DNA of 64,000 bases from Shigella phage vB_SboS_Gloob. This document shows positions 47,900 to 50,512 of the stretch, piece after piece. The stretch is taken from sequence record OL615011. One strand, given 5' to 3'. The first letter of the stretch is position 1. The number at the start of each line of letters is the position of its first letter. The position numbers were made by a program, and so were the translations under genes. The notes under the pieces were generated by a model that did no database searches, had not been told where the DNA came from, and was given only the letters and a program-made list of their open reading frames with translations.

Positions 47900-48226
47900 T
47901 TATTTGCGCAGGGCAACCACGAGTTCAGCGAGTTCACCCATGGTCGGGTCATCGCCTTTACTACCCAGCCAACCGTCGTCGATTTCGACCTGAAACTCTT
48001 CTTCGAGGTCCATTACAATTTCGATAGCGTCCAGTTCATCACCGCCGAGATCCTTCTTGGCGCGGAGGCCTGCAAACTTGTCCAACGCATCGTCTGTGGC
48101 AACTTCACCGTCAATCATTTTCTTGACGTTTGGGTATTTCACCTCGTCTGCATCTAAGTTCAGATTGTCAGTGGCGTACTGAGCCAGATGACGCATGACT
48201 TCAACATATGTTGGTTTACTGCTCAT
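47900..48226 (-). CDS. acyl-carrier-protein-like small acidic protein lacking the phosphopantetheine Ser
   Basis: LGGDELDAIEIVMDLEEEF resembles ACP helix II ([20 protein letters not shown]) but has Glu where the Ser should be. Confidence 0.45.
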   Translation of the reverse strand: MSSKPTYVEVMRHLAQYATDNLNLDADEVKYPNVKKMIDGEVATDDALDKFAGLRAKKDLGGDELDAIEIVMDLEEEFQVEIDDGWLGSKGDDPTMGELAELVVALRK

Positions 48227-48231
48227 GCTAC

Positions 48232-48262
48232 TTCTCCCAAAGAAAGGCGGGTTGCCCCGCCC
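48232..48262 (-). terminator. terminator hairpin between vWA gene and ACP-like gene
   Basis: GGGCGGGG-CAAC-CCGCC followed by TTTCTTTGG on minus strand. Confidence 0.45.
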
Positions 48263-48268
48263 GTTGGA

Positions 48269-50512
48269 TTAGATTTTGATCTCTTTCTCTGCCAGTTCGG
48301 CAGTGACCTTGTACTTCACACCATCCACTTCAACTTCCATGGTGGACTCTTCCAGGTCGAGGTCGGTGAACCAGCCGTGGCCAGCAACGATACCATAAAC
48401 CACTTTAGACAGCGTCTTGTTCAGGGCGCGGACTTCGGTGATGGCCGCCTTGGCAGCAGCGTCGATCCAGTTTTCGATCAGCTGTTTCTGTACGGCTTCA
48501 GGCACGGCAGTGATCGCAGGAGACTTCACGAATGCTTCGTATTCCTTCAGAGCATTGGCGATGAACAAGTCACCCGCATTGAGTTTCTTGTTCTCGGCAA
48601 TCTTCTTCTGTACTGCCGCGATGCTCGGCAGAGAAGACGCTCCAGCGATCTTAACGTTCAGCTCACGGCTCATGTAGACATCCGTGGAGTCCTTCAGTTC
48701 GGTCTTCGGTGAGAAGCCGTAATCACGGATGCCGTAGGAGGACAGGAACTCAGCCGCCTCAGCGCCGTACTGTACTGCCAGGCCTTTGGCGTTGCCTTTG
48801 CCAACCAGTTCATCACGGAAGAACTTCAGCACCTTCTGCTTGCCTTTCAGGGCTTCCAGACGGACATTATCCGCAAAGAACTGAGCAGCACTGATGTTCT
48901 TGACCATGGCGCGGTTGACCAGCGGTACGCTTTCCAGGTTCAGGACAAACACTTCCGGACCACCGAACACATGGACGCCCATCTGGCACAGATTGGTTAC
49001 AACTTCAACATCAGCCCTGAACGGCAGAGTCTTCACGTTGATGATGCCGTCTTTGACGATGGTGTAGTTGCGCCATTGGAAAGTATCCAGTTCTTCAGGC
49101 AGACCGAACTTCTTCTGCACGAACTCCGGAATCGCCACAGTGCCGTGCTGGACAGTGCGTACACTGATATTAGGGCGTTCGGAGTTATAGACCAAATCGC
49201 TGATTGGCACAACACCCAGATCGTTGGTAGGTTCGAACGTCGGGTTCCACTCTTCGTGCTCGGCCAGCTTGAGAGCCAGGGCTTTGCGCTCTTCTTTGGA
49301 CTCGGCGTTCGCGATCTGTTCTGCCAGCTTGTCTTCGGTATCGTCCAGTTTCTGAGCCGTACCGCGACCGATGCTCTTGTAGGAGAACATAGGATGTTTG
49401 GTGGCAACACACACGCCAGCTTCAGCCAGATACGTCAGCACGTCAACGACGGTCGTCGCATCTTCAGCCGGGACCAGGTCATAGTCAATACCGTCAACGC
49501 CGCGCAGCTGGTCATCAACGATGGCCTGGGTCAGATCAACTTTGATGTTGGAGTAGTCCTGCTTGGTGAAGCAGTTGCTGTACTGTTTGATGAAGCGGAC
49601 GTCGCCCGTTTTCTTCAGTGCAGCCCACACCAGGTCTGCGTCCATGATGTGTACGCCGTAGAACGCCAGCACGTATGCCGCCTGGATGTCCGCCAGCGCA
49701 TCAAGTTGGTCGATCATGTTAGGATTGACGACCCACAGCTTCGTGACGCTCTCAGGGATGCTCACGTGGCCAACGGGATGCTCTGCGTCTGCCTGTACCG
49801 CCAGAACAGTTGCTACGCCGTTTTCAACGTAGATGGCATGATCATACAGCAACGGAACATCAACAACCACCTTCGGAACTGAGGACTTCAGCACGGTTTC
49901 CAGCTCGGCCTGATACTCAACCTGACCTTCGGCAAACACGTGAGTCGCACCGGAGCGCTCAGACATCAGAGCCAGCAGTTCGCGGTTACAGTACCAGCCG
50001 TATTCGATGAAAGTGACGTTGTCGAACGCGGAAGGAAGTTTTTCGGCGGTGTCCAGGATCTCATTGGAGCGCCAGCAGTTGTCATAACCATCGGTCATGA
50101 ACGCCAGGTTGTTGACGTAGCCGGGTTTCTTCAGGTCACGCGCAGTATCCATCGCCAGTTTCAATGGCTCAACAAAACCAGTACAGCCGGACGGTTGTAG
50201 GAAGCGGTCGATCAGTTTGTTCAGCTCGCTCAGGTCAGATGCTGCACTAACCTGACGGCCAGCGAACACAGTACCAAAGTCGCCACGGGATGAGAAATAC
50301 AGAACACTCACAGTGTCTTCCGGTTTCACCAGAGAAGGCAGGTTCTCCTTCAGATGCTTACGGACTTCAGGGAGCGCCCGGTACATTGAACCGGAAATGT
50401 CTACAACGATTACATGGTTGGACGGAGCAGCAGTCGCAACCACATTCTTAAATTCTAATGATTCAATCATTGTTCTCTTCGCCTTTTGCGTAAGGGTTAA
50501 GTTCAGACTCAT
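48269..50512 (-). CDS. von Willebrand factor A (vWA) domain protein with MIDAS motif
   Basis: 747 aa; N-terminal VVVDISGSM (DxSxS MIDAS); large C-terminal region of unknown function. Confidence 0.6.
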   Translation of the reverse strand: MSLNLTLTQKAKRTMIESLEFKNVVATAAPSNHVIVVDISGSMYRALPEVRKHLKENLPSLVKPEDTVSVLYFSSRGDFGTVFAGRQVSAASDLSELNKLIDRFLQPSGCTGFVEPLKLAMDTARDLKKPGYVNNLAFMTDGYDNCWRSNEILDTAEKLPSAFDNVTFIEYGWYCNRELLALMSERSGATHVFAEGQVEYQAELETVLKSSVPKVVVDVPLLYDHAIYVENGVATVLAVQADAEHPVGHVSIPESVTKLWVVNPNMIDQLDALADIQAAYVLAFYGVHIMDADLVWAALKKTGDVRFIKQYSNCFTKQDYSNIKVDLTQAIVDDQLRGVDGIDYDLVPAEDATTVVDVLTYLAEAGVCVATKHPMFSYKSIGRGTAQKLDDTEDKLAEQIANAESKEERKALALKLAEHEEWNPTFEPTNDLGVVPISDLVYNSERPNISVRTVQHGTVAIPEFVQKKFGLPEELDTFQWRNYTIVKDGIINVKTLPFRADVEVVTNLCQMGVHVFGGPEVFVLNLESVPLVNRAMVKNISAAQFFADNVRLEALKGKQKVLKFFRDELVGKGNAKGLAVQYGAEAAEFLSSYGIRDYGFSPKTELKDSTDVYMSRELNVKIAGASSLPSIAAVQKKIAENKKLNAGDLFIANALKEYEAFVKSPAITAVPEAVQKQLIENWIDAAAKAAITEVRALNKTLSKVVYGIVAGHGWFTDLDLEESTMEVEVDGVKYKVTAELAEKEIKI

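Follow-up and report, generated by a model that had tools for sequence, protein, structure and literature searches.

Introduction

Acyl carrier proteins (ACPs) are among the most connected hub proteins of bacteria. AcpP of Escherichia coli, the ACP of type II fatty-acid synthesis (type II FAS; PF00550), is a helical bundle with an isoelectric point (pI) of about 4, which contacts its clients through helix II and the following loop and bears the 4′-phosphopantetheine prosthetic group on Ser36. An ACP without such a serine has been described in the mitochondrion of Plasmodium falciparum, where the protein (mACP) is a scaffold subunit of the Isd11–Nfs1 iron–sulfur (Fe–S) complex (PMC8547962). Here we describe a phage-encoded ACP-like protein of 108 amino acids (aa) with a glutamate in the place of the prosthetic-group serine, together with the large von Willebrand factor A (vWA) domain protein encoded beside it, in a stretch of 64,000 nucleotides (nt) of DNA from Shigella phage vB_SboS_Gloob (hereafter Gloob; sequence record OL615011). 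We refer to this whole stretch as the window. Both genes are already labelled in GenBank, as “vWFA domain protein” and “acyl carrier protein”; as far as we have found, the serine-to-carboxylate change and its generality have gone unreported. Our literature searches found no study of serine-less phage ACPs, of the missing serine or of the phage vWA protein, and a search combining AcpP, MukB and bacteriophage found no paper on a phage ACP.

Other known systems bear on this locus. In vWA-type domains, the metal ion-dependent adhesion site (MIDAS) can be completed by a carboxylate of the ligand, as in integrin I-domains with collagen or ICAM and in midasin/Rea1 with Rsa4 or Ytm1. Phages also encode small acidic decoys that mimic DNA, namely Ocr, Arn and gp5.9. 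The published nicotinamide adenine dinucleotide (NAD+) reconstitution pathway NARP1 (Adps plus Namat) has been described as a self-contained operon of two genes and was shown to function as such. The published ViI-like pathway to 5-(2-aminoethoxy)methyl-2′-deoxyuridine (5-NeOmdU) comprises two 5-hydroxymethyl-2′-deoxyuridine (5-hmdU) DNA kinases, gp160, a pyridoxal phosphate (PLP) decarboxylase and aGPT-Pplase2.

An ACP fold with glutamate at the cargo position

The window, which is DNA of a virulent enterobacterial phage, resembles phages of the Agtrevirus group of the Ackermannviridae; Salmonella phage P46FS4 and the Shigella phages ChubbyThor, MK-13 and Ag3 are 94–96% identical to it in nucleotide sequence. 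A 2.8-kb stretch with the vWA and ACP-like genes matches 230 phage records in a nucleotide comparison. According to the list of open reading frames (ORFs), the minus strand holds every gene of the region, and all coordinates given below are window positions on that strand.

An initial annotation, drawn from the letters of the window, had described an acidic 108-aa protein whose helix II is ACP-like and has Glu where the cargo-bearing Ser is expected. Its coordinates and sequence quotations proved correct when we re-read the minus strand, and the description itself was borne out. The protein (47900..48226, minus strand) has a pI of 4.2, with Asp and Glu making up 26 of its 108 residues, and it matches the Pfam family PP-binding (PF00550) at 26.1 bits against a cut-off of 20.8. 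Compared by sequence with solved structures, it matches bacterial ACPs best (E = 8e-6). The AlphaFold2 model has a predicted local distance difference test (pLDDT) score of 72.7, and when it was compared with the PDB by Foldseek, almost only ACPs were returned, with 2n57 at the top (probability 1.0; target TM-score 0.68). Thus, Pfam and Foldseek both place the small protein among ACPs and not in another family. The NCBIfam ACP equivalog models (TIGR00517 type) score it at 32.6–32.8 bits, well below their cut-offs of 70–71.

The conserved core of the protein (residues 59–86; 47969..48052, minus strand), DLGGD-E64-LDAIEIVMDLEEEFQVEIDDGW, comprises the equivalent of ACP helix II and the start of a W-x-G...GDDPT loop that is specific to the family. 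Around helix II, the protein shares 17 of 28 residues with E. coli AcpP, and the equivalents of AcpP D35, L37, D38, E41, M44, E47, E48, E49, F50, I54 and D56 are invariant or nearly so in the family. The codon GAA at 48035..48037 (minus strand) specifies Glu64, which stands at the position of Ser36 of AcpP. The phage protein shares with AcpP the helical-bundle fold, a pI of about 4 and the client-contacting helix II with the loop that follows it, but differs from it in having Glu or Asp for Ser36, which makes acyl carriage impossible. It also differs in an insertion of about 25 residues, modelled as two extra helices, between helix I and helix II, and in the replacement of helix III by an invariant loop, D-x-W-x-G-x(2-3)-G-D-D-P-T.

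We then consider how general the substitution is within the family. Position 64 is Glu in the 23 close cluster representatives, except for two with Asp, and the distant full-length relatives found by a profile search of 1.8 billion representatives (E down to 1e-11) all have D-[E/D]-L. In no relative of the family that we examined does Ser occupy the cargo position; the residue is always Glu or Asp. The loss of the serine is therefore not an accident of the Gloob genome, to judge from these alignments. Across 24 sequences, 33 of the 108 positions are invariant, clustering in helix II and the GDDPT loop, and 15 are near-invariant. The gene has an unbroken frame in 271 phage records, with nucleotide identity between genera falling to the 60–80% band. 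By these measures of conservation, the ACP-like gene is clearly under purifying selection.

No alternative attachment residue is apparent either. The family has no other conserved serine, the sole internal one, Ser89, varying among homologues, and the protein of the window contains no cysteine. With Glu or Asp in place of the serine and no other conserved serine available, phosphopantetheinylation should be impossible. As judged from sequence and model, the 108-aa protein is a real ACP fold that is unable to carry 4′-phosphopantetheine. Among the neighbours scanned (about 44–59 kb of the window), we found no gene for a phosphopantetheinyl transferase or for an acyl- or ketide-handling enzyme. 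The label “acyl carrier protein”, which PHROGs as well as GenBank attach to the protein, is misleading for this serine-less family.

The Plasmodium mACP resembles the phage protein in that an ACP fold has been retained without the prosthetic-group serine. In that protein, the serine is reportedly replaced by a hydrophobic residue (Phe), whereas the phage family has a carboxylate, and the one is a eukaryotic organellar protein and the other a phage protein. We identified no LYR-like partner, as found in the Plasmodium complex, for the phage ACP-like protein.

The two halves of the ACP-like protein have evolved differently. In comparison with ChubbyThor, the vWA protein is 98% identical, the N-terminal half of the ACP-like protein 67% and its C-terminal half 100%; in comparison with Maynard, a Kuttervirus, the vWA protein is 88% and the ACP-like protein 96% identical. 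The ACP-like protein changes faster than the vWA protein, mainly in residues 1–58, and distinct versions of its N-terminal half assort independently of the vWA sequence. In the region of residues 24–47, the window combines a Maynard-like ACP version with a vWA gene like that of ChubbyThor, a combination suggestive of recombination inside the ACP-like gene or close beside it.

Carboxylate-substituted ACP-like proteins beyond the Ackermannviridae

The substitution was also sought independently of this family. We scanned viral contigs with a DNA pattern for ACP helix II in which the serine codon was left free. Among the matches listed (n = 80), 75 had Ser, four had Glu and one had Asp at this position, and no other residue occurred. 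Among the best 148 matches of a profile search, 30 of the 39 non-Ser residues were Glu or Asp, a count that is biased toward Glu by the profile itself. Judging from these distributions, the Glu/Asp substitution looks selected and not degenerate.

A back-translated motif scan of IMG/VR revealed 19 non-Ackermann viral contigs encoding D[E/D]LD ACP-like proteins of 77–95 aa. A vWA gene was found within 5 kb of the serine-less ACP-like gene in none of the 19, and neither was any recurrent neighbour. Among bacteria, when one genome of each species was scanned for the Glu/Asp form, at least 120 stretches were returned, and 68 of the 121 motifs listed lay in ORFs of at most 140 aa. The bacterial D[E/D]LD matches listed form lineage-specific families in Planctomycetes, Acidobacteria, Nostoc, Clostridia, Oscillospiraceae and TM6/Babeliales. 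On this sequence evidence, carboxylate-substituted ACP-like proteins are recurrent and are not confined to phages. A Glu/Asp rule at the serine position would be simple and testable, and it points to a recurrent class of non-carrier ACPs that are filed as “acyl carrier protein”.

Some of the D-[E/D]-L-D ACP-like sequences are domains of larger proteins. A 78-aa ORF on a bacterial contig (L286) is near-identical to E. coli AcpP over the stretch displayed, with DELD for DSLD. A metagenomic protein of 100 aa (P0164) has the “G-D-D” loop of the family after helix III, yet retains the canonical DSL serine; by its sequence, it may stand midway between the serine-less group and ACPs that act as carriers.

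The vWA/MIDAS protein

The initial annotation had also described a 747-aa protein with an N-terminal MIDAS motif, and the ORF (48269..50512, minus strand), the Pfam match and the conserved full set of MIDAS residues all agree with it. Pfam VWA matches residues 34–197 (E = 2e-6; 28.5 bits against a cut-off of 23.8), and VWA_3 also scores above its own cut-off. The motif VVVDISGSM corresponds to residues 35–43 of the 747-aa ORF, with the MIDAS residues D38-I-S40-G-S42 at 50387..50401 (minus strand) and the remaining ones being T111 and D141. An alignment of 42 homologues that reaches 35% identity shows no variation at T111 and D141, and conservation of 90% or more at D38, S40 and S42. Over its full length, the protein matches phrog_2426, which is annotated as “unknown function”.

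Translation probably starts at M15 (position 50470), yielding a product of 733 aa, because the homologues are 733–739 aa long, the PHROG match begins at residue 15 and Maynard is annotated with the start that gives an 8-nt overlap with the preceding gene. The latter is a 71-aa ORF (50463..50678, minus strand), which matches phrog_20065 and has no known domain. Its stop overlaps the M15 start of the vWA gene by 8 nt, suggesting translational coupling. Kuttervirus, Serratia phage 3M and metagenomic relatives all have the 71-aa ORF conserved directly before their vWA gene, and it was not detectable beside the vWA homologues of Klebsiella phage KP15 or of other phage families. From this arrangement, the 71-aa protein may be a partner of the vWA protein.

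The AlphaFold2 model of the vWA protein (pLDDT 85.9) starts with the Rossmann-like vWA domain (residues ~31–210; 49883..50422, minus strand), which is followed by a beta-sandwich (residues ~214–262; 49727..49873, minus strand); together they constitute a “trunk plus beta-sandwich” unit. The C-terminal region of about 485 residues (48272..49726, minus strand) is modelled as a helical domain (~264–418), a beta-rich domain (~426–525), a domain of long helices (~542–710) and a terminal beta-hairpin. Alignments of the model to solved structures end at about residue 300, and no relative of this C-terminal part was detected among solved structures or Pfam families. The arrangement of vWA domain and beta-sandwich is shared with the trunk and beta-barrel of Sec23/Sec24, with archaeal ArnB (8s05), with inter-alpha-trypsin inhibitor heavy chains (ITIH; 6fpy) and with a Catenulispora vWA protein (4fx5). 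The phage protein is only 10–15% identical to them and is cytoplasmic and phage-encoded, and, in contrast to Sec23/Sec24, no zinc finger or gelsolin-like domain is recognised in it.

Some automated annotations call members of this family “tail protein” or “minor tail protein”. In the published virion mass spectrometry of phage Sajous1, one peptide was assigned to the vWA protein and one to the ACP-like protein, as compared with up to 311 for the phage-assembly proteins. These data rule out a structural tail protein, a possibility that the initial annotation had itself raised, and leave the “tail protein” annotations unsupported. The vWA gene sits amid replication and early-type genes. We also considered a vWA–MoxR or chelatase-type system and rejected it, as no AAA+ gene (MoxR, CobS or BchI) is found near the vWA gene in the window, in KP15, in Alishewanella phage Slickus01 or in the loci L005 and L006. 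From its sequence and model, we consider that the vWA protein, which is cytoplasmic and non-structural and has a functional-looking MIDAS and a large C-terminal part that looks new in fold, is probably a metal-dependent protein–protein adaptor.

The vWA family is large. A protein search gave 273 clusters of homologues, and tblastn found the gene in 503 phage records. The family spans every genus of the Ackermannviridae and extends to the Slopekvirus phages KP15, Miller and GAP161 (48% identity over the full length), to the Alishewanella phage (33%) and to Rhizobium phages (about 26%). Further named homologues in the protein search come from Shewanella, Pantoea, Pectobacterium, Yersinia and Vibrio phages, and members are also found in marine and soil metagenomic contigs and in a 629-kb Paraburkholderia contig with phage-like genes. 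By this sequence census, the family is widespread in large virulent myoviruses. Its conservation in more than 500 sequenced virulent phages is of practical relevance, as many of these are candidates for therapy or biocontrol.

No constant partner gene of the vWA family was seen across phage families, as examined in KP15, Slickus01, the Paraburkholderia contig and a marine contig of 148 kb. The vWA gene tends toward accessory or early-gene surroundings with no fixed neighbour. Just upstream of the homologue in Slickus01 lies a gene for an S-adenosylmethionine (SAM) lyase-like protein (PF23780), and in KP15 a nicotinamide mononucleotide (NMN) adenylyltransferase/Nudix-like gene is found about 6 kb from the homologue.

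Adjacency of the vWA and ACP-like genes

The initial annotation had treated the two genes as a pair and had placed a terminator hairpin after the vWA gene. A hairpin is indeed present between them (48245..48262, minus strand), followed by TTTCTTT and by GGGAGAAG, a ribosome-binding site, and the record of phage Maynard has a terminator annotated at the equivalent place. Its strength proved to be only modest: the G+C-rich stem of 7 bp has a folding energy of -17.3 kcal/mol with z = -2.1. Going by its sequence, we regard it as a modest terminator-like element. The hairpin with a T-run directly 3′ of the ACP-like gene (47874..47893, minus strand) is a strong terminator-like one, with -18.5 kcal/mol and z = -5.4, and none of 200 shuffled sequences folded as well.

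In every Ackermannviridae-like contig examined, the ACP-like gene follows the vWA gene after 37–65 nt. This close spacing is kept even in those contigs in which the ACP-like protein is down to about 34–49% identity and the vWA protein is still 73–80% identical. About 270 phage records carry each of the vWA gene, as it occurs in Ackermannviridae, and the ACP-like gene. Serratia phage 3M has a short and quite different DELD ACP-like protein encoded 882 nt downstream of its vWA gene, with three small genes between. About 230 further phage records (Slopekvirus, Rhizobium phages, the Alishewanella phage and others) have the vWA gene and no ACP-like neighbour, and none was found beside it in KP15, Slickus01, the Paraburkholderia contig or the marine contig. 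Thus, when the same gene combination is sought in other phages, it is found as adjacent genes within the Ackermannviridae, and elsewhere vWA genes and serine-less ACP-like genes occur separately. Because the Ackermannviridae are syntenic throughout, the adjacency is expected by descent alone. The two genes are therefore, on this sequence evidence, neighbours by descent, in the order small ORF, vWA gene, hairpin and ACP-like gene, and a functional pair is not established.

Relation to the NAD+ genes and to DNA modification

The neighbouring NAD+ genes are a PRS-like gene (52441..53295, minus strand) and a NAMPT-like gene (50780..52444, minus strand), which overlap by 4 nt and are followed by a hairpin and an intergenic gap. 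The order of a PRS-like and then a NAMPT-like gene with a 4-nt overlap is the published architecture of NARP1. The vWA and ACP-like genes differ from NARP1 components in that they lie outside the operon and persist where the NARP1 genes are absent. The initial annotation had placed the vWA and ACP-like genes upstream of the NAD+ genes and had suggested an island shared with them. In the direction of transcription, they in fact lie downstream. The PRS-like and NAMPT-like genes are present in Agtrevirus, whereas Kuttervirus Maynard keeps the vWA/ACP-like cassette and has two other, unrelated genes in their place; a review of the Ackermannviridae lists the NAD+ genes among the variable genes. The synteny of Maynard and the published definition of NARP1 leave the shared island unsupported. 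A relative of a known defence system was rejected as well, since neither the vWA nor the ACP-like protein matches PADLOC.

A gene for a 406-aa 5-hmdU DNA kinase (56379..57599, minus strand; PF18723, E = 8e-82) lies 8 kb from the two genes. As this is an enzyme of ViI-type hypermodification, the DNA of Gloob, which thus encodes an enzyme of a 5-NeOmdU-type pathway, is very probably hypermodified. Among the neighbours considered, this kinase is the only one that belongs to the 5-NeOmdU set. A role in thymidine hypermodification for the vWA and ACP-like proteins was discarded, the published ViI 5-NeOmdU protein set having no vWA or ACP-like member.

Proposed function of the ACP-like protein and alternatives

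We tentatively favour, as a plausible reading of the sequence, that the ACP-like protein imitates holo-ACP without cargo and docks where ACPs bind, with host ACP clients as the likeliest targets. The initial annotation had suggested a mimic or scaffold in place of a carrier, a reading that is plausible. The carboxylate that replaces the 4′-phosphopantetheine serine would sit where holo-ACP has its phosphodiester, and helix II has kept its docking face, both acidic and hydrophobic, almost unchanged; the combination of the two makes the occupation of docking sites without acyl delivery the most likely mode of action. The protein would then occupy docking sites on other proteins while delivering no acyl group, and the outcome could be that of a decoy, an inhibitor or an adaptor. 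Candidate host clients would include enzymes of fatty-acid or lipid A synthesis, AcpS, SpoT, MukB and IscS, and the MIDAS of the vWA protein might be a further docking target. The occurrence of serine-less ACP-like proteins without a vWA gene in the 19 viral contigs is in favour of this reading, as are the faster evolution of the ACP-like protein than of its vWA neighbour and the precedent of the Plasmodium mACP, a serine-less scaffold subunit.

Several points weigh against it. That Glu mimics a phosphodiester is something we infer. Host AcpP is extremely abundant, and the ACP-like gene follows a terminator-like hairpin and shows no promoter that could be recognised as its own, which would hardly be expected for a stoichiometric competitor. 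The family-specific invariant loop (W86, G88 and D92-D93-P94-T95) and the insertion of about 25 residues have no counterpart in AcpP, and the real interface may thus differ from that of a classic ACP. The fast-changing N-terminal half, in which the model has low confidence (pLDDT 53–59), may be an unconstrained linker and not an arms-race surface. Furthermore, the presence of D[E/D]LD forms in many bacterial genomes indicates that the class is not inherently a phage weapon.

A broader proposition, which we consider possible and somewhat more doubtful, is that phages and some bacteria have repeatedly turned an ACP into a “dead” look-alike of holo-ACP with a carboxylate for the phosphodiester. 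The Ackermannviridae version might then serve host takeover or counter-defence by jamming or re-routing an ACP-dependent machine, or might be an acidic ligand of the vWA MIDAS. The machines affected could include MukBEF, SpoT, AcpS, lipid A or fatty-acid synthesis and Fe–S biogenesis. If so, a cargo-less viral ACP would represent a new route of phage interference with host metabolism, chromosome handling or stress signalling, and it would offer a ready-made probe for ACP–client interfaces.

The alternatives that take the gene neighbourhood as their starting point fare less well. The ACP-like protein could be a dedicated partner of the vWA protein, its exposed Glu/Asp64 completing the metal coordination of the MIDAS in one complex, perhaps together with the 71-aa protein. 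The locus would then resemble the known MIDAS–ligand pairs, in that a complete and conserved MIDAS adjoins a small protein that tolerates no residues but the carboxylates Glu and Asp at its most exposed conserved position. The preserved spacing despite the divergence of the ACP-like protein, the near 1:1 presence of the two genes in the family and the persistence of a DELD ACP-like gene less than 900 nt from the vWA gene in Serratia phage 3M are all consistent with such a partnership. However, the synteny of the Ackermannviridae suffices to explain the adjacency. In addition, the MIDAS is invariant in the about 230 records and the metagenomic loci that have no adjoining ACP-like gene, the 19 viral contigs with serine-less ACP-like proteins have no vWA gene nearby, changes in the variable half of the ACP-like protein are not matched by changes in the vWA protein, and a terminator-like hairpin divides the genes. 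We consider a dedicated partnership unlikely. An island that unites the vWA, ACP-like, PRS-like and NAMPT-like genes in an NAD+-related or counter-defence role has even less to commend it and is in our view very improbable. The genes are close together in the window, the stretch varies between genera, and the vWA homologues of KP15 and Slickus01 have, respectively, the NMN adenylyltransferase/Nudix-like and SAM-lyase-like genes in their vicinity. Set against these points are the cassette of Kuttervirus without the NAD+ genes, the hairpin and the about 100 nt that separate the NAMPT-like gene from the small ORF opening the cassette, the published function of NARP1 as a two-gene operon, the lack of any PADLOC match for the vWA or the ACP-like protein, and the lack of a consistent neighbour across families.

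The remaining alternatives concern the small protein itself. It might be a general acidic decoy without ACP-type docking, for instance by mimicking nucleic acid and so blocking a defence or restriction enzyme that binds DNA. With Ocr, Arn and gp5.9, it has in common that it is small, strongly acidic, phage-encoded and fast-evolving, which would make it a plausible host-directed inhibitor by mimicry, and the blocking of such an enzyme would be useful to a phage that modifies its DNA with hypermodified thymidine. The difference is that those decoys mimic DNA, whereas the phage ACP-like protein retains from one specific host protein both its fold and its docking helix. What is conserved is the ACP docking helix, including the hydrophobic residues L65, I68, M72 and F78, and not a regular array of surface carboxylates; the fold search returned no known DNA mimic, and it would be left unexplained why one exact position has to be Glu or Asp. 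A general decoy of this kind is thus improbable, though less so than the island considered above. Least credible of all is a functionless, decaying remnant of a captured host acpP, or else a carrier with a non-canonical attachment site, despite the labels given in GenBank and PHROGs and the retention of the serine by most phage ACP-like genes (75 of the 80 among the matches listed). A remnant would hardly keep so many invariant positions across divergent genera or an intact frame in so many phage records, and its non-Ser residues at the cargo position would not be almost only Glu and Asp. For a carrier, there is no other conserved serine in the family and no cysteine in the window protein, and the NCBIfam ACP equivalog score is 32.6 bits against 70.45.

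Other genes of the region

Beyond the strong hairpin at 47893..47874, small genes and then the spanin genes come in the direction of transcription. On the other side of the locus, a DUF3268 zinc-finger gene is present as two overlapping ORFs of 79 and 83 aa (53402..53795, minus strand). As compared with gp164 of ChubbyThor, an 11-bp deletion shifts its frame, so that the gene is either a pseudogene in Gloob or split by an assembly error. A 672-aa protein (54245..56263, minus strand) matches phrog_1735, is conserved in the family and is followed by a 123-aa protein. It has no match in Pfam, NCBIfam or PADLOC, and the label “putative DNA-directed RNA polymerase” given to its ChubbyThor counterpart, gp166, finds no support here.

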